Program-made: the position numbers and the translations under genes
The notes under the pieces: generated by a model
Seen by the model: only the letters and a program-made list of their open reading frames with translations
Told to the model about the DNA's origin: nothing
Database searches by the model: none
IMG/VR virus record: IMGVR_UViG_3300050821_001073
Source: an uncultured virus (IMG/VR IMGVR_UViG_3300050821_001073)
Taxonomy: Duplodnaviria; Heunggongvirae; Uroviricota; Caudoviricetes
Reading direction: 5' to 3' (one strand)
Length of the DNA stretch: 30,087 nucleotides
In this document: in pieces, positions 1 to 23,896 of the stretch
Position numbering within the stretch: position 1 is the stretch's first letter
Layout: the number at the start of each line of letters is the position of its first letter

Positions 1-2
1 CC

Positions 3-473
3 AACAATCCTGGCTATTACCCATGTAGAGAAAACCTTGAAACCATTGTCAACTGGATCTTGAAACAAAAGTTGGCCATGGTAAGAGAAAACATCCAGTA
101 CGCATACGATACGCTAAAAGCAGCCGGATTGCTGCTTGAAGCACCAATGATACGTGAGGCTGTGGCCCCGGTTCAAGCCCCTATTGAGCCCGTGACACAA
201 ACGCCGGAAATTGTCCCGGCACAGGAAGAAGTCAGTCGGATTACTGAACCGAAACCTGCGAATCGCCGTCCTGCCGCAATCGCATCTGGCTTGTCAAACA
301 AGTCCGCCGCAAGCGTGGGCACACCACCCAAGAGCGGTTATACGTTGGAAGAAATCAATCGAATGTCTTCCGCCCAATTGCTCCATGCCTCAAAGACCGT
401 AAAGGGTTTTGATGCCATGATCGACCGATTGGAGAAAGAGGCATTTGAGAAGCGCCAAGCAAACCGCCAATAA
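3..473 (+). CDS. Putative capsid scaffolding protein, C-terminal part (5'-truncated by window)
   Basis: Frame is open from nt 3. Pro/Ala-rich linker, then a C-terminal helical motif (GYTLEEINRMSSAQL...) directly upstream of the MCP, the usual scaffold position. Confidence 0.6.
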   Translation, partial: NNPGYYPCRENLETIVNWILKQKLAMVRENIQYAYDTLKAAGLLLEAPMIREAVAPVQAPIEPVTQTPEIVPAQEEVSRITEPKPANRRPAAIASGLSNKSAASVGTPPKSGYTLEEINRMSSAQLLHASKTVKGFDAMIDRLEKEAFEKRQANRQ

Positions 474-507
474 CGGTCTTGTTTTGCGTTAAGGGAACCA
501 TTTCACA

Positions 508-560
508 ATGGCTTATACTCCTGCTGCAAACACTACCAACACCCTCCCGCAATCGACCGT
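508..560 (+). CDS. Major capsid protein exon 1 (MAYTPAANTTNTLPQST + GT of Val)
   Basis: ATG at 508 after AAGGGA. Joins exon 2 in frame (GT|C = Val) to give ...PQSTVKYYDAKFRENLKAQ, matching the N4-gp56-like N-terminal 'YYD' motif. Confidence 0.85.
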
Positions 561-769
561 TTTTACTGGCGGTCTTTAAATCTTTTCTAATTGACTTCAA
601 CGCTGAAATGCCAAGAAGGGCGAAGCCGAAAGGCACGCTGAGAGACTAAGCGAAAAGACACTTTTATGAGGAGTGATACGATAGTCCGAACATGTCAGAA
701 TAGTTCCATAATGACATGAAATTGACAGAAATGCTCAATTCCGGCATAGACATGCTGAGTAACAACTTG
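561..769 (+). ncRNA. Group I self-splicing intron 1 in MCP gene (209 nt, no ORF)
   Basis: P1 GACCGU(555-560)/GCGGUC(569-574) with U560-G569 wobble; P3 UCUUUUC(581-587)/GAAAAGA(652-658); P7 GACUA(644-648)/UAGUC(682-686); P8 659-675; three P9-region hairpins 691-757; terminal G769; P10 UACUG(564-568) with CAAGUA(770-775), one bulge; removal restores the frame. Confidence 0.9.
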
Positions 770-1616
770 CAAGTACTACGACGCGAAATTCCGTGAGAAT
801 TTGAAAGCTCAGACTCCTTTCGTGGCTTGTTCAGAGCGTTTGAACCTGCCCGTCCAGTCTGGTAACCAATATGAAATGTTCATGTACGTTCCGTTCGCTG
901 CCAACACGACTCAGGTCACCGAAGGCACCGTTGGAACGAGCATCACTGCTAACGTCCTGAACACGACTGCCACCATCGGCGAATACGCCGACTTCGCTAA
1001 CTTCTCTTCTTTGGCTCTCGCTACCGCGATTGACAACACCGTTGAGAACGTTGCCAAGGAAATGGCGTATCGTTTGGGCGAGTCGTTGTCCGCTGTGGTT
1101 CGCGCCACGGTTGACGGCGCTCCTTCGATTGATAGCTCGGTTCTCGTGAAACTGCCTGCGACTTCGTTGACGGCTTTCACGACCCTGTCCCTGTCCGCGA
1201 TTCGTAATGCGGTTCAGAGCTTGGCTGGCCGTGCAGTTCGTCCGTATGATGAAGCTACCAAGCTGTTCGGTGGCGTGATTCACCCGTTTGCCGTTGGTGA
1301 CGTTCTTGCTGACAACAGCAACAACAGCCCCATCGACATCGCGAAGCACACCTCCATTGGTCTGGCCAAGATGGAAGATCTTATCTCTACCGACCTGACT
1401 GAAATGATCGAATTCCCGTCTTCTGGCGTGGCGTTCTTCCAATCGCAGCTCGTCACCACGACTCCTAACTTCCAATCCGTGACCGGATTGACCGCTCTTC
1501 GCACCTATATCTTCGGGCGCGACGGCGTTTACAGCATCAAGCTTGGCGCACAGGGCGATACCGCTTATGGCGACGGCGAATGGCAGAACATAAAACCGTC
1601 CATAGTACAAAACGCT
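770..1616 (+). CDS. Major capsid protein exon 2 (N4-gp56-like, HK97 fold)
   Basis: Open frame KYYDAKFRENLKAQTPF...LPVQSGNQYEMFMYVP...TEGT...GEYADF...IHP...TYIFGRDG; strongly biased codon usage typical of a highly expressed gene. Confidence 0.85.
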
Positions 1617-2509
1617 AGAAACTTCGGTGTGGCGTCTGTAGGCTTAAATCTACAGTAAAAAATAAAGCAACTCTAATTGACTTGGAAGCTGAAATGCTAA
1701 CAGGGGGCAAGCTAACGCAGCCTGAACGACTAAACGAGTTGCATCCTTATAGGATATGTGATAGTCTAAACTTATGGAAAAAAGCACTTATATTGATGAA
1801 ACAGGAAACCGCTACGGAAGATTGATCGTGATCTCCAAAGCTGAAACTCTTAAAAAAGGAAACAAAACACTCGCGCAATGGAATTGCATTTGTGACTGCG
1901 GACAAGAACGCATCGCATTGGGTCATGTATTGCGGTCGGGTAAACTGCTTAGCTGTGGTTGTTTGAAGCGGGAACGTGCCGTGGAGAATTGCCAAAAAGG
2001 TACGGATGGACGTAAAGGTCTTCCCGCCTATAACAGCGTAGATGAGATTGGAAACATATACGGCAGATTAACAGTGATTGCTCAATTACCAACGAAGCAC
2101 AAACGTTCAAGATGGCGTTGTAAATGTGAATGTGGTAAAGAGAAGAATGTTACTGGAGGGTCTTTAAGATCCGGTAAGGTTCAAAGCTGTGGGTGTTTAT
2201 ATCGTGATGTCGATGCCTTTGAAAAGCGCAAACCACGCATTGTGGATTACAGACGAAATGCAAGGCAGAGAGATTACGAGTTTTTGATTTCAGAAGAAGA
2301 GTTTGAAGCTATTACTAGTTTGTCGTGCCATTATTGTGGGGAAATCGCTCCTAATGGAATAGACCGAATTGATAATAAAGTAGGATATGTCAAAGAGAAT
2401 TTAGTTCCTTGTTGTAGTTTATGCAATAGAATGAAACTAACTTTGACTACTGAAAGGTTCATCGAGCAGTGCAACAAGATCATTAACCATAAGAATAATA
2501 TTACGCTTG
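1617..2509 (+). ncRNA. Group I intron 2 in MCP gene (893 nt) with homing endonuclease ORF in the P9 region
   Basis: P1 ACGCU(1612-1616)/GGCGU(1631-1635) with U-G at the splice site; P2 1636-1655; P3 GCAACUC(1667-1673)/GAGUUGC(1736-1742); P7 GACUA(1728-1732)/UAGUC(1762-1766); P8 1743-1755; P10 GGUGU(1626-1630)/GCACC(2510-2514); terminal G2509. Confidence 0.9.
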
Positions 2510-2517
2510 GCACCTAG
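1774..2517 (+). CDS. Intron-encoded HNH-family homing endonuclease with two N-terminal Cys-rich repeats
   Basis: Two repeats GNxYGRLxVI...WxCxCxCG...LRSGKxxSCGC, then CHYCG...NGIDRIDNKVGYVKENLVPCCSLCNRMK (ββα-metal/HNH-like). AT-richer than the flanking exons. Confidence 0.85.
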   Translation: MEKSTYIDETGNRYGRLIVISKAETLKKGNKTLAQWNCICDCGQERIALGHVLRSGKLLSCGCLKRERAVENCQKGTDGRKGLPAYNSVDEIGNIYGRLTVIAQLPTKHKRSRWRCKCECGKEKNVTGGSLRSGKVQSCGCLYRDVDAFEKRKPRIVDYRRNARQRDYEFLISEEEFEAITSLSCHYCGEIAPNGIDRIDNKVGYVKENLVPCCSLCNRMKLTLTTERFIEQCNKIINHKNNITLGT

Positions 2518-2641
2518 CGTAGCGGACCCGGAAGGCCTGATCCCAGGCTGGACCGCTTATAAAGTGCACTTTACGACCTCTTTGGGAGCCGATCCGATCA
2601 TCAGGATTCGTCTCATCGACGCCGCGAGTGCGATCAGCTAA
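2510..2641 (+). CDS. Major capsid protein exon 3 (APSVADPEGLIPGWTAYKVHF...AIS*)
   Basis: 43 codons plus TAA, in frame after ...VQNA; contains the DP...GW..K C-terminal motif of N4-gp56-like MCPs; followed by a terminator. Confidence 0.85.
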   Translation, partial: APSVADPEGLIPGWTAYKVHFTTSLGADPIIRIRLIDAASAIS

Positions 2642-2675
2642 GATTTGCTTTAGTTGGTGTAGCAGCAATAAAGAT

Positions 2676-2701
2676 AGGGAGCCCTAACCGGCTCCCTTTT
2701 C
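2676..2701 (+). terminator. Rho-independent terminator after MCP
   Basis: AGGGAGCC-ctaacc-GGCTCCCT hairpin followed by TTT-CTATT. Confidence 0.75.
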
Positions 2702-2731
2702 TATTAGTTTTATCCTTTTAAGGAGACATTC

Positions 2732-3169
2732 ATGTTTGATTATATTTCTCAGGGCGTACCTACCGTCCAGTCACCCGCTGCACCGGCTCTATTGGCCGAT
2801 GTGGTAAACGGTCGTCTGTATGTCTCAACCGCTGCCGGTTGGACCAATGTCGCTTCTGGCGTTCAGCAGACCCTGTCCGCTAACGGTGCGATTTCGCCGA
2901 CTTCTTCGGCTACCTACGCGATCACCAAGACTTCTGCGGATCTTTTGACGCTTGCAGCTCCTACGGCTGCTGGTGTGAACATCACTGTGACTAGTGACTC
3001 AGCGTTCGCCCACACAATTACCGCTACTGGACTGATCCAGGACGGAACCACTGGTGGACCGCACAACGTTGCAACTTTTGCCGCGTTTCCTGGTGCGACC
3101 GTTCACTTCGTTTCAGCTCCTAGTTTGAAATGGAACGTTGTTTCCTTGCAGAACGTCGTAATCAGCTAA
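2732..3169 (+). CDS. Putative head decoration/fibre protein (short paralog of 3195)
   Basis: AAGGAG RBS; β-rich Thr/Ala protein; N- and C-termini similar to ORF 3195; immediately after MCP. Confidence 0.55.
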   Translation: MFDYISQGVPTVQSPAAPALLADVVNGRLYVSTAAGWTNVASGVQQTLSANGAISPTSSATYAITKTSADLLTLAAPTAAGVNITVTSDSAFAHTITATGLIQDGTTGGPHNVATFAAFPGATVHFVSAPSLKWNVVSLQNVVIS

Positions 3170-3194
3170 GATTTAGTTTTAAAAGGAACAACTG

Positions 3195-4388
3195 ATGGCG
3201 TATGATTATATAACACGTGGCGTACCCACGATTCCCGTGCCCGGTACGCCAGCTTTGGCTGTCGATATCGCTAATGATCTGCTTTATATTGGAAATCCGA
3301 CTACTGGTGGTTGGGTTCCTGCTGCTCCTGTAGCTGGACCTGCCACAGCAGTCAATCTTCCTGCTAGTAGTGCACCAACTGTTGGAACGGTTGCACAGTC
3401 TGGTGCTGCAATTCTAAGTACTTTTGGTACTGATAATCTATTTGTTGGTACTGGTAGCGGAAACTTTTCTCTTACTGGTAGTGATAATACTGGATTAGGA
3501 TTTGATGCTCTACATAGTCTCACTACTGCTACCAAGAATACTGCGGTAGGTTCAGGAGCATTACAATCCATTACAACTGAATTTGGAATATTCACGACTC
3601 CCACAGAGAACACTGCGGTAGGTTTTGATGCTTTAAATCTTTGTACAACATTTCAGAATGTGGCAGTTGGCTCACAAGCATTGAAAGTTGCAACTACTGG
3701 TGTTAAGAACACAGCATGTGGTTATAGTGCTCTTAAGGCACTGACTACCGGGGGCAATAATGCTGCTATAGGTCTTGGTGCAGGACAACAGATTACTACC
3801 GGAGCAAATAATACTACTATGGGTGCCAATGCAGGCATCGCAATTACTACTGGTAGTAATAACGTTTCTATTGGTCAGACTAATGATGTTGACACAGGAT
3901 CTAGGAATATCACAATAGGTGTTGGTTCATTTGTTCCAGATAGTACTGCTAGTAACCAGATGAGCATTGGCAATACTGTTTATGGTTCAGGTCTAAATGG
4001 TCCAGATACTGGTAGCATCGGAATCAATGTTCAAATTCCTACTAATACTTTGGATATATTAGGTGGAATTACTTTCAGTGGTTCATTGAATCCTTTAACC
4101 GCAATTGTAGCCAATGGAGCAGTTCCTGTTACTGGATCTGCTAATTATGTTGTCACTGTGGCTACGGCGCTTACGATTGCTGCCCCTTCAGTTGATGACA
4201 CTAGGATTGAGATTACTACATTCGACACAGCGACCCCAGTTCTTACCTTCACCGGAAATACTCTAAATAGTGGCTCAGCGGCAGTCGCTACGGCTCATTT
4301 TGCAGCATTCGCAGGGTCCAGTATTATCTTGGTTTCGCATACGGGAAAATGGAATGTCATTAGCCAAAATGCAGTGACCTTTGCATAA
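3195..4388 (+). CDS. Putative head fibre with internal NTAVG β-roll (trimeric adhesin head-like) repeats
   Basis: ~14-aa repeats (NTGLGFDAL, NTAVGSGAL, NTAVGFDAL, NVAVGSQAL, NTACGYSAL) between termini shared with ORF 2732. Confidence 0.65.
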   Translation: MAYDYITRGVPTIPVPGTPALAVDIANDLLYIGNPTTGGWVPAAPVAGPATAVNLPASSAPTVGTVAQSGAAILSTFGTDNLFVGTGSGNFSLTGSDNTGLGFDALHSLTTATKNTAVGSGALQSITTEFGIFTTPTENTAVGFDALNLCTTFQNVAVGSQALKVATTGVKNTACGYSALKALTTGGNNAAIGLGAGQQITTGANNTTMGANAGIAITTGSNNVSIGQTNDVDTGSRNITIGVGSFVPDSTASNQMSIGNTVYGSGLNGPDTGSIGINVQIPTNTLDILGGITFSGSLNPLTAIVANGAVPVTGSANYVVTVATALTIAAPSVDDTRIEITTFDTATPVLTFTGNTLNSGSAAVATAHFAAFAGSSIILVSHTGKWNVISQNAVTFA

Positions 4389-4416
4389 TCAGTACGTTTT
4401 TATTTAAGGAGCCTTC

Positions 4417-5439
4417 ATGGCAAACCCCACTCCTCAGCCCAATCCTACGACTGGTATTGGGACCGCTGCACGAGTTCGTATGAGCGGCACTGGCATTACG
4501 CAGATTACGGGCAATGAATACACCGTAACACTTGGTGTTGTCGGGATGACCACGACCACTGTTACCCCACTTATACAGGATGTTGCAGGATCGGCCTTCA
4601 CTTCTGGTAATTCAAATATTGCCCAATATGTTTCACGTTCACCTTCTATCGCCACGGTCGGCGCTACGAGTGGGATCATCACCGCCGTGTCCACTGGACA
4701 GGCTGAAATCGAAGTCCAGTATGCAACATTTGATGGAACGAATAGCGTTCTTGTGGACAAAATATATGCTACGGTTCTTTCTACCGTTACCGTGAATACT
4801 CCCGTTCCGGGTCCAGTACTAACTGGCCTTGGTAACTTCGGTATGCTAGGAATCGCTGCTTCGACTGGTAGCGCCGCCACTTCTGGCAATGCTGCTCACG
4901 TTGCGTCTGACGTTGGTAGTCGCACTGCAATCAATAACTTTCCTCCGACGGTTGTGGATTCTCCGTTCGTTCTTCACAGTCTCGATGATTCGCCGACTGA
5001 AACTGCTATCACTGCTTTCTTGGCAGCTTACGCAGATCTCAGCACTCGGACTCCTGGAACCACTTATGCTGGCGATAAGAATCTTGGTGGATTGACTCTT
5101 GGTCCTGGAATCTATCGATCTACTTCAACTTTTAGCATCACGACTTCGACGAATCTTACGCTAAACGGTTCCGCTACTGACGTTTGGGTCTTCCAGGCGA
5201 CCACGGCGATGACCACGGGCGCTACTTGTCAGGTTATTCTGACTGGTGGAGCACTGGCGAAGAACGTCTATTGGGTAATGGGCACGTCGATGACTCTTGG
5301 AGCTACGAACGTATTCAACGGTAGCATACTTGCAGGAGCCGCTATCAATGTTGGTGATACCGTTACGGTTCACGGTCGTTGCTTGGCTCAGACTGCGGTT
5401 ACGTTGACTGGCAATTTGATCGTGCTGACCCTCCCGTAA
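4417..5439 (+). CDS. Ig-like (Big_2-type) plus DUF3494 ice-binding-like domain virion protein
   Basis: N-terminal YVSRSPSIATV..SGIITAVSTGQAEI (Big_2-like). C-terminal AYADL...LGGLTLGPGIY...VWVFQ...VILTGGALAKNVYWVMGTSMTLG...FNGSILA...VHGRCLAQTAVTL, a typical DUF3494 pattern. Confidence 0.8.
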   Translation: MANPTPQPNPTTGIGTAARVRMSGTGITQITGNEYTVTLGVVGMTTTTVTPLIQDVAGSAFTSGNSNIAQYVSRSPSIATVGATSGIITAVSTGQAEIEVQYATFDGTNSVLVDKIYATVLSTVTVNTPVPGPVLTGLGNFGMLGIAASTGSAATSGNAAHVASDVGSRTAINNFPPTVVDSPFVLHSLDDSPTETAITAFLAAYADLSTRTPGTTYAGDKNLGGLTLGPGIYRSTSTFSITTSTNLTLNGSATDVWVFQATTAMTTGATCQVILTGGALAKNVYWVMGTSMTLGATNVFNGSILAGAAINVGDTVTVHGRCLAQTAVTLTGNLIVLTLP

Positions 5440-5461
5440 CATTTGATTTAAAGGAGCCTTA

Positions 5462-5893
5462 ATGGCCAATCCGACCCCTTCGCATAATCCTACGGATGCT
5501 CTTGGTACGGCAGTGGTAATTGAACTGTCTGGCACTGGCGTTACGAATATTACTGGCAATGAGTACACTGTGCAGCTTTCCGTGTCGGCTACTGGCTTTC
5601 CGGCTACTTGCACTCTGACCGCTGTTCTGGAAGATGCTGCCGATGCCACGTTCACTTCTGGTAACTCTAATGTTGTCAATTATATTAGCTACAACAACCC
5701 TGGCGCAAACTCTGCTGTTTCGCAGAATCCTAACATTGCCAGTGTTGGCATTACCTCTGGCGTCATCACCGCTCTGAATCCCGGCCAAGCCGTGATCGAA
5801 GCGCGTTTTGCTACCACTGATGAGAATGTCAACAGCAATAGCTTGCTTCCTGGCTTTATCTATGCCACGGTGTTGGTTGTCGTTGGTCCGTAA
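5462..5893 (+). CDS. Ig-like (Big_2-type) virion protein, short paralog of 4417
   Basis: AAGGAG RBS; MANPTP..NPT..GTA...SGTG.T.ITGNEYTV.L shared with 4417; NPNIASV..SGVITALNPGQAVI. Confidence 0.7.
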   Translation: MANPTPSHNPTDALGTAVVIELSGTGVTNITGNEYTVQLSVSATGFPATCTLTAVLEDAADATFTSGNSNVVNYISYNNPGANSAVSQNPNIASVGITSGVITALNPGQAVIEARFATTDENVNSNSLLPGFIYATVLVVVGP

Positions 5894-5953
5894 CTGTATC
5901 TAAACGCACGGCAGGTTAACCCCCTGCCGTTGCACCCTTGAAAGGAGCCCCCG

Positions 5954-6667
5954 ATGGCGGATGTACGCGATGCAATGGCCAGCTTGGCTACAGGTACGAA
6001 GAAGGCTCCCAAGGCAACCCCTAAGGTTGAGCCCAAATCCGAAATGACGGAAAGAATTATAGATAGGCCCAAAAGAGGGTCAGATGGCTTATTTGAGCAG
6101 CCAGAACCTGAAAAGGGCAATGATAAACGCGCAAAGCGGGAAGTAGATGAGCAACGCCACCGTTTGACATTTGCGGAATTGTTCAATTATGCCGATATTA
6201 CTACTGGAAACCCGGCCACATTTGATCCTACAGGTAAATATGTCTGTGGTGGGTGCAATAAGTTTTACGGCAAAGACAAATGTACGATCATTAAGCCAGA
6301 ATCTGGAATAGACGCCAATGCAGGCGGATGCGCTAAGTGGGACATTCCTCGTGCTAGCGATACTGAACTGGATATCGCAGAGAATCCTAAAGCTGCTACG
6401 GCTGAGAGTGTTGCATATGGAGTCTCCAAGAAGGCTAAGTTCGGTTGTCAGGTCTGTCCGTTCGCTGAGAAGGCCAATGAGCTTGACTCGCAACGTCGGG
6501 ATACCTACTGTAAGCAGATGGATGCACGTGTTTACTGGAATGCCTGCTGTACTTTTAATGGAGTTGAAGTTGAGGGCTATTTCGAGGGAAACAAACTCTC
6601 GAAGGAAGAAGCCGAAGAAAGTTATGAGTCGCCCGAAGAAGAGGCTACCGAGCACACAGAGGAGTAA
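5954..6667 (+). CDS. Cys-rich hypothetical protein with two HiPIP-like four-Cys motifs
   Basis: AAGGAG RBS; C-x2-C-x8-C-x15-C-x2-W and C-x2-C-x17-C-x12-C; charged, probably disordered termini. Confidence 0.6.
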   Translation: MADVRDAMASLATGTKKAPKATPKVEPKSEMTERIIDRPKRGSDGLFEQPEPEKGNDKRAKREVDEQRHRLTFAELFNYADITTGNPATFDPTGKYVCGGCNKFYGKDKCTIIKPESGIDANAGGCAKWDIPRASDTELDIAENPKAATAESVAYGVSKKAKFGCQVCPFAEKANELDSQRRDTYCKQMDARVYWNACCTFNGVEVEGYFEGNKLSKEEAEESYESPEEEATEHTEE

Positions 6668-6668
6668 C

Positions 6669-6809
6669 ATGGATCACCAAGAGGATTTGGCAGTGGAAAA
6701 TGGGCAGTTGAAGCGCGAAGTACGATTCATGCGTAGACATGTCCGTAAACTTGAAAGGGCGCTTTCAGAGCTATTCAAACAGTATTGTGAAGAGACTAAA
6801 GACAATTAA
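6669..6809 (+). CDS. Small coiled-coil hypothetical protein (46 aa, MDHQEDLAVENGQLKREV...)
   Basis: GAGGAG RBS overlapping the upstream stop; heptad Leu pattern. This is the 3' end of track ORF 6318..6809. Confidence 0.6.
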   Translation: MDHQEDLAVENGQLKREVRFMRRHVRKLERALSELFKQYCEETKDN

Positions 6810-6812
6810 CTG

Positions 6813-6821
6813 TGCTATAAT
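6813..6821 (+). promoter_or_regulatory. Extended -10 promoter (TGcTATAAT)
   Basis: Perfect TGnTATAAT at the start of an intergenic region; similar context at 23486. Confidence 0.65.
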
Positions 6822-6825
6822 AGTA

Positions 6826-7050
6826 GTATAGAGATGATCTAGATAAGGGCAAATGAGGGCTTGGAGAGGTCGGATTACCCACTCCAGCTTGTTGTTTGTC
6901 CATAGTTGTGTGCGGAATAGGCCATTCGGCACCTAACGACCGACTAAATACAGGAATAATTACCCTGTTTAGGTTAGTTTCTAGGCTTTTGGCTCCTTGA
7001 AGGCACTTTAAACTGCCTGTAAGGGGTCTTTGAGGGGCCACAAAGCAAAA
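6826..7050 (+). ncRNA. Candidate structured leader / ncRNA
   Basis: ~240-nt non-coding gap in an otherwise tightly packed operon, containing at least four consecutive hairpins downstream of a promoter. Confidence 0.4.
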
Positions 7051-7062
7051 ATGAGGAGAGAA

Positions 7063-7689
7063 ATGCAAGTACAACCTAAGATTAAGGGAACGCATACCAG
7101 TGAAGAGTCTCCATGGCAATCTTATGCTCGTGAGATGGACCTGAAAATGAACCCGAGACTGGCTAAAGAAGTGGAAATCTACAGCCAGAAGCACCATACC
7201 AAGTCTTCGCAGCAGAATGAAGAAGCCTTGGCAGAACAGCTCGAAATGAGTCAGGCGATGTCGAAGCAGTATCAGTTCATCGACCCCAAAGAATATGCGG
7301 ATGTGAAGCCACGCGTTGGACGTCCGATGCACAGCGCAGAACTCATCAACCGGCTTCGCCAGATAGGCATACAGTGCTGGTACAGACAGCACCCGCACGC
7401 GGACAAACTCGTGTTGGTCGTGCAGCGCAAACTGATCGGTCCTCTGGAAATAGCTGGATGGGTCCAGGCCGGATGGACGACGGAATTCGAGATTTTGAGA
7501 TTTGACAGTCGCGGCCTAGTAGTGAATTCACGCTACAGGGGTTGGCGCACAGTATTGTTGCAGTTGATCCTAAAAGGTGTTCTGACGGAACAAGCCGTAA
7601 GGGAAGAATTCGGTTTGCCAGTCGGACCCGCGAGTAGTCGCTATCTGCGCACTCTATATGATTATCGCAACTTCTACAAAGCAGTTTAA
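7063..7689 (+). CDS. Hypothetical phage protein
   Basis: GAGGAG RBS before ATG 7063 (preferred over track start 7030); 208 aa; no recognised family. Confidence 0.75.
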   Translation: MQVQPKIKGTHTSEESPWQSYAREMDLKMNPRLAKEVEIYSQKHHTKSSQQNEEALAEQLEMSQAMSKQYQFIDPKEYADVKPRVGRPMHSAELINRLRQIGIQCWYRQHPHADKLVLVVQRKLIGPLEIAGWVQAGWTTEFEILRFDSRGLVVNSRYRGWRTVLLQLILKGVLTEQAVREEFGLPVGPASSRYLRTLYDYRNFYKAV

Positions 7690-7699
7690 GAGGAGAATT

Positions 7700-8338
7700 A
7701 TGGAAGATACCAAAAAGAAATCAGTAGTGGAACCCGAAGTTAAGGAAGTCAAGCTCTCCGCTGTGGAAGCGGCTGATCTCGAAATCAAGCAGCTAGAACT
7801 CGAAATCAAGAGAGCCGAGTTGGCCGCAAAGGCAGCGGAACTCGAAGATCGTACCCTAGCTATCGCAGAACGCAAGTTCAATGCAGAGAACATGCAGCAG
7901 CTCCGTGACGAACGGTCTATGAAGATTCAAGACAAGACTCAGAAGTCGAAGCAGAACGGCCAGACATTGCGTGCTACCCTTCAGGGTGAGACTGCGCACC
8001 AGATGAATTGCACCCACCGTAAAGGTGGAAATGGTATTCAGGGCTTCATGCAGGGCAAAGGCCAGAAAGACGATCATTGTCTTATGAGGCACATGCTTCC
8101 TAATGGAGATACTTGGCAACGTTGTTTGCGTTGCGCAAAGACCTGGAAGCCGCCAGTGCGTGTGGACTTCACTGTCAATGGAACGTTTGATGAAGCTGGC
8201 TACAAGTTGGCCGGGGACGTTTATAAAGCCGCACTTCAACTTTCGACCAATTCAATCACGAGTGGTGGAACTCAGTGGCGCTTCAGCGATGATGGAGAAC
8301 ATTTTCGCACAGTGACCCGCAGTTCGACGCTCCGTTAA
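7700..8338 (+). CDS. Hypothetical protein: N-terminal coiled coil plus Cys/His putative zinc-binding domain
   Basis: GAGGAG RBS before ATG 7700; LEIKQLELEIKRAEL coiled coil; CTHRKGG...HCLMRH...CLRCAKTW. Confidence 0.75.
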   Translation: MEDTKKKSVVEPEVKEVKLSAVEAADLEIKQLELEIKRAELAAKAAELEDRTLAIAERKFNAENMQQLRDERSMKIQDKTQKSKQNGQTLRATLQGETAHQMNCTHRKGGNGIQGFMQGKGQKDDHCLMRHMLPNGDTWQRCLRCAKTWKPPVRVDFTVNGTFDEAGYKLAGDVYKAALQLSTNSITSGGTQWRFSDDGEHFRTVTRSSTLR

Positions 8339-8344
8339 ACACTA

Positions 8345-8366
8345 AGGGGACCTTTCGGGGTCCCCT
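8345..8366 (+). terminator. GC-rich intergenic hairpin (weak terminator or stability element)
   Basis: AGGGGACC-tttcgg-GGTCCCCT; U-tract is poor (CACTATTT). Confidence 0.45.
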
Positions 8367-8396
8367 CACTATTTGCGTTTAGATCAAGGAGCCACT

Positions 8397-9509
8397 TTGG
8401 CTAATAGCACGATTACGATTTCTCAAATTGCGGATTCAGCCTCAACTTTCGGTGATCTTGCTCCAGTTCTGGCTTCCGGTGGGTTCTCCGATCAACCGGC
8501 CTTGGATATTGCGAACACAGTTGTTACAAAAATGTTGGCAGGCTCTGCCGATGGTGCACCTTTCAACTGGAAGTTCAACCGCTTCAATACACCCAGTTTC
8601 GTGACGATAAGCTTTCAGCAAGATTACTTCATTCCCGGCCTATTAAATCTTGGTTGGCTTGAGAACTGTTGGGCAGTGAATATTAACCAACAGACCAATC
8701 TTAAGGCAAAGTATGAAGTAGAGTGTGTCCGTGACCTGGATGTTACCTTCTTACAGACCGGGTATCCTGGCAAATTATGCTGGCTTCCGAATTCTATGCT
8801 ACTTGCTGGAACTTGGGGAGCAACCCCACTTGGACCGACCACAGGCAATCTTGGTGGTGACCAAGGTGGAATTGGTAAGAATCTTTCAGGATTACAGAAT
8901 CCTGGACCCAATGTTATTTATACGAACCCAATCGGACTTCTGACGCAACCTGCTAATGCTACGACAGGAATTAAAGATCCTAATGGCAATCTTTGGGTTG
9001 TAACGACATTCGGCACTTGCGGCGCTACACAACCAGTTTGGACGAATCCTCCGAGCTTCCCGACCTATGCCAGTCCGAATACAGTGGCGAGCACAGTCAC
9101 CGATGGAACGACAGTTTGGACCGCAATTGATCCGAGCAGCCAAGGCTTCCGTGTGAATCCTTTGCCTCCGCAGACGGGAACGGCTTGGGTATTTCAGCCA
9201 ATAGGGCAGCAACGTATTCCGGTATTTACATCATTACAGCAGACGCTAGAGCCGATTCCAGATGACTATGTTGAGTACTTCAAACAAGGCTTCTATACGC
9301 AATGTGTGCGTCGTTCCGCAGACTCTAAGGTTCGTGCAAGATTCACTGCCGAAAATGCTCTGTGGATGAAAGATCTATCCGATTGCGTTAAGCAGTCTGA
9401 CCGCGAGAAGGAAGACTATGGGTTCTATCCAGGAACCTCAGTAATGGACTCCAACTGGATCTCTGGATTGATATCGCGTCCCGACAGACCTTGGGGTTGG
9501 GGTAACTAA
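8397..9509 (+). CDS. Putative head-tail adaptor / tail tubular A-like protein, long paralog
   Basis: AAGGAG plus TTG at 8397; motifs PFNWKFNR, QQDY, PLP, PIPDDY shared with ORF 9520; position before the nozzle-like gene. Confidence 0.55.
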   Translation: MANSTITISQIADSASTFGDLAPVLASGGFSDQPALDIANTVVTKMLAGSADGAPFNWKFNRFNTPSFVTISFQQDYFIPGLLNLGWLENCWAVNINQQTNLKAKYEVECVRDLDVTFLQTGYPGKLCWLPNSMLLAGTWGATPLGPTTGNLGGDQGGIGKNLSGLQNPGPNVIYTNPIGLLTQPANATTGIKDPNGNLWVVTTFGTCGATQPVWTNPPSFPTYASPNTVASTVTDGTTVWTAIDPSSQGFRVNPLPPQTGTAWVFQPIGQQRIPVFTSLQQTLEPIPDDYVEYFKQGFYTQCVRRSADSKVRARFTAENALWMKDLSDCVKQSDREKEDYGFYPGTSVMDSNWISGLISRPDRPWGWGN

Positions 9510-9519
9510 AGGATACTAA

Positions 9520-10236
9520 ATGGCTAATGTTTCAACTGTGACACTCGCTCAAATCTTAGAATTCTCTAGCAAGTTGAATTTTGGCAGAGTATCCAACCTT
9601 GGTAACTTTCAAGAACCAGCGATGACAGCGGCCAATATGGTGATGCAGACTCTCCTTGGACCACCTTTTAGGTGGCGTTGGAATAGGCAAGTTAAGACTT
9701 TTTCGACAATTATAGCCACACAAGACTATGCTCAGGCAGTGGCTAATTTTGGATGGATTGAGGATGCTAGTGTATTTGATCCTACCATAGCTAAATGGAT
9801 TGAGATGGAAGAGAAGGTGGGGTTAGCTCTAGACTCTACCGCAGGGCGTCCCCGTAACATCTCTGCTGAGTTTGATAACGGTACGGGTAATATAACATTC
9901 CGGTTCATGCCTATTCCTGAGAAGATTTACTCGGTTAGTGTTACCATACAAAGTGCTGCACCATTGTTTACGAGCACTGCGCAGACACTTACACCCTTGC
10001 CCGATATGTATAGTCATATTTTCCAGTGGGGATTTCTTACTCTTATGTGGTTCTTCGCTGATGACCCACGCGCAGCGCAGGCCAATGGTAAGTTCGTTAG
10101 TGCACTTTTAGCCGCTAACCAGGGCTTGACGGAAGTTGAGCGTAACGTTTTCCTTTCGCAATGGTCTGCTATTTCAGGACAACCGATGATGATGTCACAG
10201 AACATACAGCAAGGCACAGCCGCTCGCGGCCAATAA
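9520..10236 (+). CDS. Putative head-tail adaptor / tail tubular A-like protein, short paralog
   Basis: PFRWRWNR...TQDY...GRP...FRFMPIPEKIYSV...PLPDMY, an adaptor-like pattern. Confidence 0.6.
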   Translation: MANVSTVTLAQILEFSSKLNFGRVSNLGNFQEPAMTAANMVMQTLLGPPFRWRWNRQVKTFSTIIATQDYAQAVANFGWIEDASVFDPTIAKWIEMEEKVGLALDSTAGRPRNISAEFDNGTGNITFRFMPIPEKIYSVSVTIQSAAPLFTSTAQTLTPLPDMYSHIFQWGFLTLMWFFADDPRAAQANGKFVSALLAANQGLTEVERNVFLSQWSAISGQPMMMSQNIQQGTAARGQ

Positions 10237-10245
10237 GGAGATCCC

Positions 10246-11409
10246 ATGGCATTAACTAAGACCCAACTCATCGGTGGTGGCTTCCAAGATCTGGAAGGAA
10301 ACCCGCTGGCCCTTGGATTTCTTACCATGGAACTTTCACAAGATGAAGTGGCTACAGGAGTCGGTCAGGTAGGTTTTGGCATTAAGATACGGGTTCCCTT
10401 GGATGGTAGTGGGAACGTATCAGGTACGGTATTGGTTTGGGGTAATGATGACCTTACTCCGGTGAACAGTTACTACACAGTAAATGCATTCACGGCTAAA
10501 GGTCAATTAGCATGGGGACCACAGTACCAAGTAGTGGTGTCCGGTGCAACTTTCGATCTAGGAACATGGATTCCTAACAGTCTTAGTATTGTGAATTCAG
10601 GTGGTGGATCAGGTGTTACTAGTTTAAACACGGAAACTGGCGCTATTAACATTATCGCAGGAACTAACGTAACAGTGGCATCGGCAGGACAAAATATTAC
10701 GATTTCATCTGGGACTGTGGCACCTCTCATCGTAGAGACGAATGGCGTTGCAAACTCCTCGCAGTTGACTCTAAATTTGGTTGCTGGTGCGAATGTCACC
10801 CTAACTAATACCTCAGGTGGAAATGTTACGATTGCATCACCTACTTCTTCAACCATTCCAGCAGGAAGAAATGTCACTCTAGGATGGAGAATTATTAATC
10901 TTGGGAATATTGCAACTTCTGGATTCCAAAATATTACTATATTCAATAAAATTTATGGACGGAACCTTATCAATAATCCGGTAGCTAATAATTGGAAAAT
11001 GAGAATGGCCATTGCAGATAACCATAATAGTTTTCCTCTAGTATTAGGGAATATGGTGCTTTTGACCACTTTAGCAAATTCTCTGGCGGTAATCTCATCA
11101 ACCCCAATAACTATTGGAGGATTGGGAGCCCAGACATTGGCACTAAACTCTGGAGAAACCCCCACATTCATTGAATCTGATCCTATAAATTTAGCATTAG
11201 ATACACTTCATGACTACACGGCAGCTTTCTATATAGCAAATGTTGCTGGAAATTCAAATTTGCTATTTGCCCAAGCTTCAGCAGGGGCAAATGCAGGGTT
11301 TGGGATGATAGGGCTAACCACTTCGGGCGATCAAACAGCGATTTCAACACTTCCGGCTGATAATACGTTTACGGATTTAGAATGGCTCTACCAAGTAGTC
11401 ACAGTTTAG
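10246..11409 (+). CDS. Tail fibre/spike protein
   Basis: N-terminal attachment-like domain (FQDLEGNPLALG...LDGSG...NDDLTPVNSYY), GVTSLN and AGTNVT fibre repeats, AT-rich C-terminal domain. Confidence 0.65.
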   Translation: MALTKTQLIGGGFQDLEGNPLALGFLTMELSQDEVATGVGQVGFGIKIRVPLDGSGNVSGTVLVWGNDDLTPVNSYYTVNAFTAKGQLAWGPQYQVVVSGATFDLGTWIPNSLSIVNSGGGSGVTSLNTETGAINIIAGTNVTVASAGQNITISSGTVAPLIVETNGVANSSQLTLNLVAGANVTLTNTSGGNVTIASPTSSTIPAGRNVTLGWRIINLGNIATSGFQNITIFNKIYGRNLINNPVANNWKMRMAIADNHNSFPLVLGNMVLLTTLANSLAVISSTPITIGGLGAQTLALNSGETPTFIESDPINLALDTLHDYTAAFYIANVAGNSNLLFAQASAGANAGFGMIGLTTSGDQTAISTLPADNTFTDLEWLYQVVTV

Positions 11410-11422
11410 TTTAGGAGCTACC

Positions 11423-14400
11423 TTGCCAAATCAATTGTCAATTTCAGGGGCTCAGGCTCAAAAACCCACTAGATTCGCACCTATCTATACGGGTCGCTGG
11501 TCATCGGGCTTATGGACCAACCGCAGTCCATTGCGCGATGCGGCGACTTCTCGTCAGGCAGAGAAATATTATGGTGCTTCAGGTGATGCGCTTATTGCAG
11601 GCTCTAATGTTGAGATTACGAATCGATTGACTCTTGCTCGTAGGCCAGGAAATTCAGTATTTGATAGTAATACCTATGCCAATGTAGACCGTTTTGAAGA
11701 ATTTCGACTATTCAATACCTCTACTGAGCAGATCGATGTGATGGTTGATCAGAGTAATGCACTATACTCGCTATTTGCCGGTGTGAAGACGCTCGTTTGG
11801 ACCAAGACTCCAGGTGCAGGTCAGACGTATATGCAGTCTGTAGGCAACACTTTGTATTTTGGCAATGGTCTTGATAATAAGAAGTGGTTACAGTCTCTTA
11901 CACTTTGGATGGCGTTTGCCAAGTGGAACACACCTATTACTCCGTTTTTGACTACCTTCCTTATTGACCCTAATACTAACATCCAGCAGTTGACAGCAGC
12001 GATATTTCCTATTACGAATATCTCAGGAGTTGGTGGCACAATCACGGCAACTTCTAGTACCACCCTTACCGGGTTGTTGACCCCAGGACTTACTGTCACA
12101 TTTCCTAGCACCATAGTTACTTCCCAATTATCGGGCCAAACCGTTACAATTCTTACAGTTACCACAAATACCTTTACATTTACCTTCAATATTCCTGGTA
12201 CATTTTCTAATCCAGAGACAATAAATGCAACCGCTACAGGTGGTACGCCAACTTCTGGTGCTACGCAACCTACTTGGAGCACAGTTACGCCGAATGCAGG
12301 CAATAACTTCCAAGGCGGCTTGACGATTGATGGAACGGTACTATGGACTAATCGTGGAACACCTGATGCAACACATCCTGGACTCCCTTCTGTGGAGAAT
12401 TGGGGAATAGTTGCACCACCGAATACACCTATAGTTTCAACGGGTGCAGCAGGCGCTTGGGTTCCCAACACGTTCTTTTCTCCTTTGGGAATTATCATAG
12501 ATATCAACGGTAATGTTCAAAAGGTTACTACTGCTGGCAAATCTGGGCCAGCGCAACCAACTTGGGCAACGATATTAGGCAACACCACAACCGATGGCGG
12601 GGTAACTTGGACAGTCGCTCAAGTAGATTCATTAACTTGGGCAGCACACACAGTTTACCCGGCAGGTCAGATCATTGAAGCTGGTGGAGATATCTTCCAG
12701 TTAGCGCCTTTCTCACAGATCACATTGAATGCCCCAGTTGCGGCAACTCAATGGCCAAGTGGTGGAGGTCCCGCAGGCGGTCAATTTCAACAGACGAGCA
12801 GTTCATCTCCATTCGCTATTAGGGCAACGGCTTCGGGAACTTCACTTAGCGTGGATGACCCGATTCAAGCAGATAGTCCAGCAAGTGCGATATTATGGAA
12901 TACTTTTGATGCATCTGGTGCGGTCACTGGAACTACATCACCATTTCCAGGTCCGAACTCAAGTGGCATTACCAAAGATTTCCAGATAGCCTTCACGACT
13001 AATTGGAATGTTCCAGTAGCTGGACAGTACACGATTACTGTTAAGCATCATGACGGCATGGTCTGGGGTGTTAATGGTGGTGCGACACTGGTGTCTGGTC
13101 CTCATAATGATCCTAACCATCTTACACATACAGCCTTGAACTCCTATCCGATTATGGGCGGAACGAACCTCCCATTGAATGATGGCGGGCTCTCCACAGA
13201 TGTCTTTGTGGTGAACTTTCCGACAGCGGGTTCCTATGCAGTCGAGTTCGATTGGGCTTATTGGTTCCACCAGGGCAGAACCTTTGTGGTGACGGCGAAT
13301 GGAAATACATTAATCACAGGTCCGGCTGAGAGTGGTGCAACTTCGCCAGCATTCCCTGCATATACTACTTCTCTTGCTCCTGCAAGAGCTAATGTGACTG
13401 AATCGGCAGGAAACTTTGTTTGGAATAACTTTGGACCCATTACAGATATGCAATGGCGTGCAAATACGGGCTTCACACTGCCAAATTCAACGATCTTAGA
13501 TCCTAATGGAAATACGGAAGCACCTTTTGAGGCAGGATTCACAGGAACGACTAGACCTACATTTTCAACTACACTTAATAGCCTTACACTTGATAATCCT
13601 AATCTAATTTGGATCAATCAAGGTCCAGGGGCTGCACCACCACCGGGCACGATTAGTGCACTAGCTGGCGGGTTTCAATATGCTATTGCTCTAGTCAATA
13701 CATTGGATAACACCGTCTCTAATGCTAGTCCCTTATCAGTTTCTACTGGGAACTTTGTAGGATCAACAGGTGTGGTAATTCCTCCAGGAAGTGGACTTAT
13801 TCCTGCGAATATTGACCCACAAGCCGATTATGTTGCCATATTCCGTACTGTGGATGGCGGCTCATTACCCTTCCTAATACCTGGGACGGGCAATTCGATT
13901 TATACTGAAACATTACACGATTATTTGACGAAGGGATTCACAGATACGACCCCTGATACTGGTTTGAATAACTTGATTTCAGCACCTATCGCTGGAGAGA
14001 ACACTCCACCAGCAGGTGGTGCAATCAATCTGACCTATCACTTGGGTCGGATCTTCTTCAGCGTTGGAAACGTAGGTTATTGGACAAGTGGTCCGGATAC
14101 GCCAGCAGGCAATGGTGTGAATGGTGTTGCACCTCTAAACTTTGATACATTTCCTAGTTTGCTTAAGAGGATAGTACCAACGAACCAGGGAGTCATTGTA
14201 TTCTCTGTGTCGGACATCTTTCTGGTGAATACATCGAATGGCGTGACCATCCCTAAGGCAGTAATCTTGCTGAAGGGTATTGGACTACTAAGCTACAATG
14301 CTTTGGATGTCAACGGCGCTTTGATTGGGTTCTATACGACAGACAATCAGTTCGTGATCCTCGATCCCGGAGCTGGTGTTTCTTACGTCGGCTTACCAAT

Positions 14401-15706: not shown

Positions 15707-15709
15707 TAG

Positions 15710-15722
15710 AATCAATGACTTA
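15710..15722 (+). promoter_or_regulatory. IHF-consensus site (AATCAATGACTTA)
   Basis: Exact match to WATCAANNNNTTR in a short intergenic gap. Confidence 0.35.
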
Positions 15723-15732
15723 AGAGGTGCAG

Positions 15733-16461
15733 ATGGCGAGCCTAAAAGACGCAACAAACACGAGTTTGGCAGGGTACGAAGCAGTCCCTGCCGCTCCCTT
15801 TACCCGGCCTTCCCCTCCTACTGTAGACTTACAACCAGGGTTCAGTCCGCATATGCGGAGTCCATATCCCATCCTTGGGGCCAGTCCTGATGGTTTAAGA
15901 CAATTCTACCAAGGCACAATTCCTCAGAATAGATTATTGCCCATTCTTCCTATACAGGATGCAGGCGTTCTTACTCAAAAAGGTGTAGTAATTACCACTA
16001 TTGGAAGCGGGACAGGCAGTGGGAGCAGCTCTGGTGGCACTGGCGGCGGAACAAGTGGCGGTGGAACTTCTACCGTTACGGCTCAAAGCACTTCCTTGAC
16101 AACTCCTTCACTGGGACCCGGTGCTAGGTTCGTGAGTGCCCTTAATATTTCAAAATCATTTCAACCTCTCCTTATTTCTTCAACTGTGGCTGCTAGGTTA
16201 GAACTTTATGGCACTGCAACAACACAGGCAGGAGATGCGGGCAGAGGACTGGATGTGGCACCACCGGCAGGCACAACTCAGAATATCATAACGGATGTTG
16301 CACTGGATACAGCACCTTTCCAATGGTCCTATCAGGATCAGGTTGGAGCGAACGCAGATAATCCACAGGTTCCTTTAGCTTACCTGACTGTGACGAACCT
16401 TAGTGCGGGTAGTGCAGCAATTACCGTAACACTTCTTTATGTTCCCTTGGAGTCGATCTAA
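15733..16461 (+). CDS. Tail-associated structural protein
   Basis: AGAGGT RBS, ATG 15733; Gly/Ser linker; C-terminal β domain (AARLELYGTATTQAGDAGR...). Confidence 0.6.
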   Translation: MASLKDATNTSLAGYEAVPAAPFTRPSPPTVDLQPGFSPHMRSPYPILGASPDGLRQFYQGTIPQNRLLPILPIQDAGVLTQKGVVITTIGSGTGSGSSSGGTGGGTSGGGTSTVTAQSTSLTTPSLGPGARFVSALNISKSFQPLLISSTVAARLELYGTATTQAGDAGRGLDVAPPAGTTQNIITDVALDTAPFQWSYQDQVGANADNPQVPLAYLTVTNLSAGSAAITVTLLYVPLESI

Positions 16462-23512: not shown

Positions 23513-23896
23513 ATGGAAAACCGACTGATTACTGAACAGGATAGGGGAGTTCTTGAGACGTCCCTAGCTGCCGATCAATTCCACAAGGACACGACCAGCG
23601 CCGACTTCTTCTACGGTCTGAACTCAGAATGTAGGATTTACACGGAAAATGAGCAGCCAGTGGCTTTCGTTAGATGTTCCAAGGCGCTACGTCTGGATAT
23701 ACAGTTTGTCTCGAACGACGCGAAAAGGCTCAATGCTCGTCTCCTTCTTGAGAATCTTGAAGCATTTTGTCAACGTGCCGCCGATAGCGGATATAGCGAA
23801 ATAGTTTTTGAATCAAGTTCACCTGAACTAGTGGCGTTTTGTGTGGCCAAATGTGGCTTTACTGCCGTAGCAGGAGAACTCCGTAAGTTATTGTAA
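23513..23896 (+). CDS. Putative GNAT-fold protein (T7 gp13-like position)
   Basis: 127 aa; RLITEQD N-terminus, PVAFV strand, ..AADSGYSEIVF...LVAFCVAKCGF C-terminus; directly before the ejection genes. Confidence 0.5.
   Translation: MENRLITEQDRGVLETSLAADQFHKDTTSADFFYGLNSECRIYTENEQPVAFVRCSKALRLDIQFVSNDAKRLNARLLLENLEAFCQRAADSGYSEIVFESSSPELVAFCVAKCGFTAVAGELRKLL

Follow-up and report, generated by a model that had tools for sequence, protein, structure and literature searches.

We analyzed gp4417, an open reading frame (ORF) of 340 amino acids with an ATG start, located on the plus strand at positions 4417 to 5439 of a 30,087-nucleotide stretch of DNA from an uncultured virus of the class Caudoviricetes (IMG/VR record IMGVR_UViG_3300050821_001073); this whole stretch is called the window below. 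gp4417 joins a conserved N-terminal peptide and an immunoglobulin-like (Ig-like) domain to a DUF3494 ice-binding-type domain, and its N-terminal part belongs to a family whose genes adjoin the major head protein gene in related viruses. We propose, with a probability of about 0.6, that gp4417 belongs to the late structural proteins and most probably serves as capsid decoration or head fiber, in which case it would carry its DUF3494 domain outward as a surface-binding module. That the protein is displayed on the particle at all is the firmer part of this proposal and appears quite likely, given the position near the head gene, the N-terminal motif, the three topologies in which DUF3494 is grafted onto virion-module proteins, the ribosome-binding site, and the contigs from an RNA library. 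As for the site of display, the evidence leans mildly toward the capsid rather than the tail.

gp4417 carries a DUF3494 domain

A Pfam search matched gp4417 to PF11999 (Ice_binding) with 135.2 bits against a cut-off of 28.7 (E = 3e-39). The match spans residues 140 to 335 (nucleotides 4834 to 5421) and profile positions 18 to 207 of 208, the first 17 profile positions having no counterpart in gp4417. An earlier note, made from the letters of this DNA, had described a complete, Thr-rich DUF3494 pattern at approximately 4830 to 5436 without a signal peptide, and the profile comparison that it proposed bears out the domain well above threshold. The other two properties hold as well: threonine makes up 17.6% of gp4417, and the first 50 residues contain no hydrophobic stretch by Kyte-Doolittle hydropathy (highest 12-residue mean, 1.17), although no dedicated signal-peptide predictor was used. 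An export signal is usual in cellular ice-binding proteins, and its absence would be expected of a phage structural protein.

Comparison with sequences in the PDB gave 25 distinct matches at E ≤ 0.01, all of them DUF3494 ice-binding or antifreeze proteins; the alignment with EfcIBP (6eio) runs end to end (query residues 120 to 339, chain residues 14 to 230). The same assignment emerged from an AlphaFold2 model built on a 103-row alignment (a single-sequence model reached a predicted local distance difference test score, pLDDT, of 34.8). Residues 190 to 335 were modeled at pLDDT >93 as a long helix (residues 192 to 209) followed by the strands of a beta-solenoid (residues 215 to 336), and the model shows the right-handed triangular solenoid with one long packed alpha-helix by which this fold is recognized. 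A Foldseek search of the PDB with the model yielded 31 matches at E ≤ 0.001, and the listed ranks 1 to 30 are all DUF3494 proteins; root mean square deviations (rmsd) were 1.2 to 3.2 Å over 145 to 176 columns, with 6.5 Å for 6bg8.

Combining Pfam, the PDB comparison, and the model, we assign residues 140 to 340 (nucleotides 4834 to 5436, plus strand) to a DUF3494/IBP-1 beta-solenoid with its flanking helix. Ahead of it on the same strand lie three further segments. Residues 1 to 26 (4417 to 4494) hold a conserved motif, NPT-T/D-G-x-G-x-A...SGTG, which we recognized in family alignments and propose as a particle anchor. Residues 27 to 125 (4495 to 4791) probably form an Ig-like, Big_2-like beta-sandwich scaffold, as judged from the family profile, a BLASTP alignment to a cellular protein (P0004), and ESM Atlas rows of a paralog. 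Residues 126 to 139 (4792 to 4833) are a Pro/Gly-rich linker, and the stand-alone members of the scaffold family end exactly at this point. Upstream of the gene, a Shine-Dalgarno motif, AAGGAG (4406 to 4411, plus strand), can be read directly 5 nucleotides before the ATG, and the ribosome-binding site is strong.

A PHROGs search assigned no family to gp4417 or to its paralog gp5462, and a search of BFVD with the gp4417 fold yielded no phage protein among its matches at E ≤ 0.001, which were three Hyperionvirus proteins. Megablast of window positions 3000 to 8000 found no match in the phage collection. Likewise, tblastn with gp4417 and with a canonical viral DUF3494 protein (L007) found no match in 50,697 phage records, which is weak evidence of absence because the low-complexity filter was on; it is weakened further by the PF11999 homologs assigned to Synechococcus phage S-SKS1 in PMC11515562.

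The N-terminal part belongs to a family of Ig-like scaffold proteins

A profile of the scaffold family matches residues 1 to 125 of gp4417 with 74.8 bits. The gene immediately downstream, gp5462 (5462 to 5893, plus strand; 143 amino acids), is a stand-alone paralog, 50% identical to gp4417 residues 1 to 124 (E = 6e-37); the sequence read directly at 5451 to 5456 on the plus strand shows it preceded by the same AAGGAGCCTT motif as gp4417. The protein collection contains 19 scaffold homologs of near length (103 to 198 amino acids), and in the alignment all 19 stop at “...VTV.P”, where gp4417 continues into the linker and DUF3494. A search for longer homologs returned gp4417 itself only, but it was word based and blind to relatives of approximately 30% identity; forms at that level of identity, in which DUF3494 is nested within the scaffold, were recovered by tblastn instead.

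The earlier note had called the N-terminal domain Big_2-like, which stands at the level of fold only: Pfam Big_2 (PF02368) gave no match at E ≤ 1 for whole gp4417 and none at E ≤ 10 for residues 1 to 138. Together with the identity to gp5462, two observations point to a Big_2-like fold. Residues 54 to 124 align without a break to the Big_2 region (residues 187 to 253) of P0004, whose architecture is transmembrane (TM)-Big_5-Big_2-DUF3494, and the ESM Atlas model of gp5462 compares with Big_2 clusters at template modeling scores of 0.57 to 0.61, with two rows reaching the bar for naming. Compared with PDB profiles, the scaffold family reached no match better than E = 0.085.

Conservation within the family is uneven. 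Across 35 sequences, mean pairwise identity is 75% over the first 20 residues versus 42% and 51% for the remainder, while overall identity among related loci ranges from 43 to 84%.

The scaffold gene is tied to the major head protein gene

Scanning IMG/VR for patterns derived from the scaffold alignment gave 126 pattern matches and 63 confirmed relatives in 51 distinct loci. The Ig-like family gene comes next after the head protein gene in 49 of the 51 (tblastn, E ≤ 1e-5; head proteins approximately 69 to 77% identical to that of the window), at a distance of 201 to 1627 bp from the end of the head-protein match. This gap measures 201 to 317 bp in 23 loci and 750 to 1630 bp in the other 26, where it is mostly filled by HNH-like matches. 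The two exceptions (L101 and L105) show only a short match to the N-terminal motif, and L105 has an ORF with the motif. Intact head proteins of the related loci are 84 to 92% identical to each other. A scaffold whose first 20 residues are conserved while the rest varies, next to a head protein that is itself conserved, fits the picture of a docking peptide, and the scaffold may thus dock on a conserved partner. In the window, 1.8 kb and two variable genes separate the end of the head gene from gp4417, and its family is first after the head gene in relatives, which agrees with the earlier placement of gp4417 in a head-decoration gene block. The family has the head-module position, next to the major head protein gene, by which decoration proteins are recognized.

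The nearest cultured relative, Tunturiibacter phage Tunturi_3 (PP885686.1), has a head protein 78.8% identical to that of the window and a counterpart 57% identical to the window’s 378-amino-acid structural protein. Its gp7 (3574 to 4512 of that locus, L106) occupies the post-capsid slot and matches the scaffold profile weakly (E = 1e-7). This protein retains the N-terminal motif and the C-terminal strands of the scaffold and carries two copies of an approximately 60-residue repeat between them, apparently as a third type of cargo for this loop of the scaffold.

DUF3494 behaves as a cassette

Alignment with the stand-alone members shows that DUF3494 has been appended to the C terminus of the scaffold in gp4417. 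A different arrangement occurs in 6 of the 51 related loci, representing three distinct proteins (L057=L058=L066, L059=L060, and L104), where DUF3494 is nested within the scaffold: the scaffold profile matches residues 3 to 35 and 282 to 390, and DUF3494 lies between profile positions 40 and 83. These nested forms are encoded by a second Ig-like gene downstream of the stand-alone one.

A third arrangement is found in the tail block of the window itself, in a 1427-amino-acid protein (ORF 11423 to 15706). Its homolog in Tunturi_3, gp19 (1136 amino acids; 52 to 63% identity), has alignment gaps opposite residues 1080 to 1126 and 1132 to 1293, and these delimit a second DUF3494 cassette at residues ~1080 to 1293 (nucleotides 14660 to 15301, plus strand), within which Pfam places a PF11999 domain at residues 1101 to 1280 with 112.4 bits. 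Another insertion relative to gp19, of 82 amino acids (residues 193 to 274; window positions 11999 to 12244), has no family match.

The two copies in the window are 40% identical over 145 residues, no closer to each other than either is to cellular homologs. In a FastTree phylogeny of 186 DUF3494 domains, which left out second domains of database proteins and envelopes shorter than 110 amino acids, both window copies sit on long, weakly placed branches, while the nested copies form one clade with a support of 100. The two window copies may reflect duplication or separate capture. The guanine-plus-cytosine content of the cassettes (0.52 and 0.50) is slightly higher than that of the window (0.48), which we did not count as evidence of transfer. 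Judging by these sequence comparisons and by its absence from five larger relatives, DUF3494 appears to be an exchangeable cassette, one that phages of soil attach to exposed proteins of the virion. In gp4417, the conserved N-terminal peptide and the Ig-like domain would dock on the particle and the C-terminal solenoid would face outward as a surface-binding module; the lineage of the window would have grafted the cassette once onto the post-capsid scaffold and once into the 1427-amino-acid tail-block protein.

Contigs from soil include those of a metatranscriptome

Parts of window positions 3195 to 6667 were found in three sequencing runs (two of DNA, one of which may be the source of the window, and one metatranscriptome), all labeled soil metagenome. 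Fourteen contigs of the metatranscriptome map to window positions 1 to 16000, and 12 match at 99% or better. Two contigs lie inside gp4417 with no differences there (4374 to 4524 and 5155 to 5306); in and after the second cassette, one contig shows no differences (14925 to 15088) and another two (15440 to 15683), and the head gene and the gene at 2732 are covered too. From the stretch 5875 to 8010 and most of 8545 to 13350, which lack such cover, we conclude nothing. One contig joins position 1603 to position 2510, skipping an HNH endonuclease ORF and keeping the reading frame of the head gene. Because this joint looks like RNA splicing and was not seen in either DNA run, the contigs probably derive from RNA, and gp4417 is probably transcribed in soil. 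The second soil DNA run contained one contig approximately 90% identical to window positions 5220 to 5435, the 3′ end of the DUF3494 region, and another identical to positions 5495 to 5692; there is probably a divergent strain that carries this C-terminal fusion too.

DUF3494 in other viruses and in cells

A scan of viral sequences with a DUF3494 alignment pattern found 69 stretches, with relatives encoded in 51 viral loci in ORFs of 244 to 2746 amino acids. All 41 distinct ORFs exceed the Pfam cut-off, and their partner domains include CHB_HEX_C_1/Fn3_assoc (11 ORFs), Big_5 (1 ORF), and a weak collagen/DUF7151 match (1 ORF). The neighborhoods were compared with PHROGs using 141 ORFs around 12 loci and 70 ORFs of 200 to 700 amino acids around the other 29, four of which had no neighbor ORF in that size range. 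A major head protein is encoded on the same strand within 4 kb upstream in 9 of the 41 (L016, L029, L033, L010, L018, L025, L028, L051, and L022), and directly ahead of the DUF3494 gene in 5 (L033, L029, L018, L028, and, with one endonuclease between, L016); the head proteins concerned belong to PHROGs 14242, 2522, and 752. The remaining loci adjoin nucleotide-metabolism genes, terminase, tail fibers, or unassigned genes. A position beside the head gene is therefore recurrent but not the rule. Among species-representative genomes, at least 616 stretches match the single DUF3494 pattern and at least 613 of them encode relatives.

A candidate binding face and its ligand

In the solenoid of gp4417, four successive coils present A264, S291, A309, and A327 in one column and, two residues on, T266, T293, N311, and T329 in another. 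By sequence pattern rather than superposition, these fit columns 2 and 4 of the b-face described in PMC12337378, where column 2 is Ala, Ser, or Thr and column 4 is mainly Thr or Ser. According to the same source, an Ala “trough” accompanies strong activity, and Ser, Thr, or Gly in column 2 is commoner in frozen sediment, rock, and subsurface. The Ala/Ser and Thr columns of gp4417 would form an intact candidate binding face, and it is tempting to speculate that this flat face, with its Ala/Ser column beside a Thr/Asn column, binds a regular, repeating surface. Threonine occupies the last three ladder positions in 87, 74, and 89% of 46 viral rows versus 47, 48, and 66% of 119 database rows, and the first position in 61% versus 73%; the viral rows in this comparison are mutually related and the mapping to the b-face follows sequence pattern only. 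The column pattern itself occurs also in proteins from ice-free habitats. The T-A/G-X-T/N ice-binding motif of FfIBP, for which the papers examined gave no confirmation, does not enter this argument.

With the Thr/Ala face intact, binding of ice by the gp4417 domain is plausible. To our knowledge, ice is the only ligand ever shown for the DUF3494 fold, and we count this in favor of ice. Ice is the single most likely ligand, albeit at less than even odds, and a host or soil polymer such as exopolysaccharide comes close behind.

Evidence against display on the capsid

Several observations weigh against the proposal that gp4417 is a capsid protein with an outward DUF3494 module. The structural model suggested in the earlier note recovers the DUF3494 solenoid, but its first coils (residues 131 to 181) and likewise the N-terminal domain are modeled poorly, at pLDDT <50. 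Approximately three quarters of the other viral DUF3494 genes lie away from a head gene, and several are found amid nucleotide-metabolism genes. A gene that follows the head gene can encode a connector or a fiber. The main text on Tunturi_3 (PMC11924767) mentions neither mass spectrometry nor the terms “structural protein” and “head decoration.” Finally, the metatranscriptome contigs are uninformative on strand and expression level, and an RNA library can contain DNA.

The earlier note had further suggested that the virion surface displays ice-binding modules for protection during freezing and thawing or for retention at ice. This is partly supported: the Ig-like anchor, the DUF3494 domain, and the head block are as it described, and display is backed by the genomic context, while a role in freezing and thawing or in retention at ice would go beyond this.

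Alternative roles of gp4417

What the displayed domain would do divides into two possibilities, neither of which we hold more than tentatively. The first is that the DUF3494 domains are true ice-binding modules, which would keep virions attached to ice surfaces or within liquid veins, or protect them against growing crystals when soil freezes and thaws. All 25 sequence relatives in the PDB are experimentally studied ice-binding or antifreeze proteins, 35 to 38% identical over the solenoid, although solved structures are a biased sample from cold organisms. Further points for ice are the intact Ala/Ser trough and Thr ladder, with Thr more conserved in the viral copies at the last three positions; the soil label on all three runs that contain this DNA; and the architecture of an Ig-like stalk plus DUF3494, as in a described bacterial ice adhesin (6bg8). 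Moreover, the nearest cultured phage comes from soil of an Arctic tundra meadow, with metagenomic relatives reported from peat permafrost as well as from Indiana, Colorado, and Washington soils (PMC11924767). On the other hand, PF11999 is absent from all five larger relatives searched (three rated 100% complete, one 80%, and the Arctic isolate Tunturi_3), whereas the same search recovers both copies in a near-identical 42.7-kb viral record (G001). In addition, PF11999 counts as one of the abundant Pfams in a set of 1512 soil metagenomes (PMC11237643) and is present in the tropics, hot springs, caves, and vents (PMC7783341, PMC12337378), and the best 80 relatives from species-representative genomes come from many phyla at 37 to 53% identity, with no readable cold-specific pattern. 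A fuller version, which we regard as somewhat doubtful, is that virions themselves adsorb to ice through their head and tail DUF3494 domains, inhibit recrystallization locally, concentrate in liquid veins, and survive freezing and thawing, with the Ig-like scaffold as a display platform for swapped environmental binding modules.

The second possibility is that the displayed DUF3494 is a general adhesin that would bind a ligand other than ice (host exopolysaccharide or capsule, cell-wall glycan, or mineral or organic surfaces in soil) and aid host encounter or retention in the manner of Hoc. In Tunturi_3 gp7, an unrelated tandem-repeat insert occupies the scaffold loop that takes DUF3494 in the nested forms; the CHB_HEX_C_1/Fn3_assoc, Big_5, and collagen-like partners of other viral DUF3494 proteins are typical of adhesion or carbohydrate-binding fibers; and the second copy lies in the tail block, where receptor-binding proteins are found. 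In the view of Raymond et al., the family recognizes various kinds of repeating substrate (PMC7783341), and the related Pfam family PF20597 is named “ice-binding like adhesive” (PMC12337378). Against this, the literature examined reports no ligand other than ice for a PF11999 domain, and a survey of fibrillar adhesins names Ice_binding as the sole adhesive domain whose target is ice and not cells (PMC8286594).

It is unlikely, yet worth weighing, that gp4417 is instead a tail or side fiber, that is, a receptor-binding protein whose N terminus docks on the tail, its gene being a neighbor of the head gene and nothing more. The protein in this slot of Tunturi_3, gp7, carries the annotation “tail fiber protein,” and the neighbor of gp4417 at 3195 to 4388 (g3195) matches tail-spike PHROGs; both observations also count against a capsid location. 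Interchangeable fibers are usually built from a shared N terminus and distal parts that vary, which favors this role as well. Three features speak for the capsid instead: the tail module starts approximately 4 kb downstream of gp4417, at the adaptor gene (9520); the scaffold follows the head gene directly in 49 of 51 loci; and the stand-alone members, at 143 to 213 amino acids, are short for a fiber.

Finally, a nonstructural auxiliary gene, whose product would act inside the cell or be released at lysis and cryoprotect the host population, is very improbable: three PF11999 genes on Arctic viral operational taxonomic units have been presented as auxiliary metabolic genes with host cryoprotection proposed (PMC11515562), and four viral DUF3494 genes (L007, L008, L036, and L054) lie among nucleotide-metabolism genes, but gp4417 has no signal peptide by hydrophobicity, and its domain does not stand alone, being part of one protein with a member of the scaffold family that accompanies the head gene. 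The second copy sits inside a 1427-amino-acid virion-block protein, and other lineages have nested insertions in the same scaffold.

Genome neighborhood

The gene order of the window begins with a possible scaffolding protein, the interrupted head gene, and an HNH endonuclease, followed by four variable genes including gp4417 and gp5462; then come four genes common to relatives, a weak SU10-type adaptor at position 9520 (25 bits, under the cut-off of 27), and the tail block. By tblastn with the Tunturi_3 head protein and a match to PHROG phrog_1357, the major head protein gene lies in three pieces on the plus strand between 508 and 2641 (508 to 561, 762 to ~1616, and 2510 to 2641). The interruptions measure approximately 200 and 890 nucleotides, the latter containing the HNH endonuclease ORF (1774 to 2517), and an Rfam scan of positions 400 to 2800 found no intron family. 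Head-protein matches split into two or three pieces 45 to 700 bp apart, at more than one position, are seen in many related loci (L056, L060, L062, L070-L075, L081-L084, L086, L087, L090, L094, L096, L099, L100, and L102), and intervening sequences in the head gene seem to be common and mobile within the clade.

The two variable genes between the head gene and gp4417 occupy 2732 to 4388 on the plus strand and encode proteins of 145 (2732 to 3169) and 397 (3195 to 4388) amino acids. Identity between the two proteins is 47% over the first 38 residues and 39% over the last 95, and the repeat-rich middle of the second matches PHROGs of the tail-spike and virion-structural kinds. For neither did the 51 related loci or Tunturi_3 yield a homolog, and a PDB profile search with g3195 gave no match. 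A strong terminator-like hairpin (2676 to 2697) lies ahead of both.

Downstream of gp5462, positions 5954 to 8338 hold three genes with markedly A-rich coding strands (AT skew, 0.13 to 0.23). The first encodes an acidic, Cys-rich protein of 237 amino acids with no family match and no homolog in relatives, and the other two are conserved across the clade. Elsewhere, a 127-amino-acid ORF (23513 to 23896) matches a GNAT acetyltransferase below the Pfam cut-off, its Tunturi_3 homolog being annotated as an acetyltransferase, and so does an 872-amino-acid ORF near the end of the virion block (27305 to 29923).

Relation to known systems and significance

The closest characterized proteins are single-domain DUF3494 proteins, namely EfcIBP (6EIO), AnpIBP (7BWX/7BWY), FfIBP (4NU2), ColAFP (3WP9), and the Cryosericum IBPs (9LHN/9LHS), which share the Pfam family and the fold with gp4417 at 35 to 38% identity and an rmsd of 1.2 to 3.0 Å over approximately 150 residues. 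They may also resemble it in the Ala/Ser and Thr columns of the presumed b-face. Whereas these proteins are secreted or extracellular, come from cold-adapted cells, and have measured ice activity, gp4417 lacks a signal peptide, is fused to a phage Ig-like domain, has diverged first coils, and is known from sequence alone.

In architecture, the nearest likeness is SfIBP_1 of Shewanella frigidimarina (6BG8; E = 4e-12), in which, as in gp4417, an Ig-like stalk precedes a DUF3494 head; it is described as an “ice adhesin” with tandem Ig-like domains plus DUF3494 (PMC12337378). It is anchored to the cell envelope and not to a virus particle. Two cellular proteins, P0004 and P0047, have the order Big_5-Big_2-DUF3494 and align to 82% of gp4417.

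Among phage proteins, T4 Hoc and T5 pb10 are likewise small accessory Ig-like proteins encoded by a head-module gene. Their presumed place is the capsid surface, where they would mediate weak adhesion, and they consist of Ig-like domains only, without DUF3494. Neither gave a sequence or profile match to the scaffold family in the PDB profile search. Tunturi_3, a 97.6-kb podovirus of an acidobacterium (PMC11924767), has gp7 in the slot of the scaffold and gp19 as the homolog of the 1427-amino-acid protein, but both lack DUF3494, gp7 carrying its tandem-repeat insert instead. The Arctic viral auxiliary metabolic genes (Microbiome 2024, PMC11515562) are phage-encoded PF11999 genes, as here; there they are read as host cryoprotection without a virion context, while the domain of gp4417 is fused into a virion-module protein. 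Within the literature searched, phage PF11999 genes are treated only as auxiliary genes that help the host (PMC11515562), and display on a virion is not described.

Ice-binding proteins have been described in cells and, on the supposition that they benefit the host, on a few viral contigs from the Arctic. If the domains described here bind ice, they would represent a direct physical adaptation of virions to frozen soil, with a bearing on virus persistence and host encounter in permafrost and seasonally frozen ground. If they bind another ligand, they would offer a natural experiment for identifying what the many DUF3494 proteins of ice-free habitats bind. In both cases, a post-capsid Ig-like scaffold that accepts both end-on and nested grafts would be a natural display platform, for which Tunturi_3 on Tunturiibacter provides a cultivable system.

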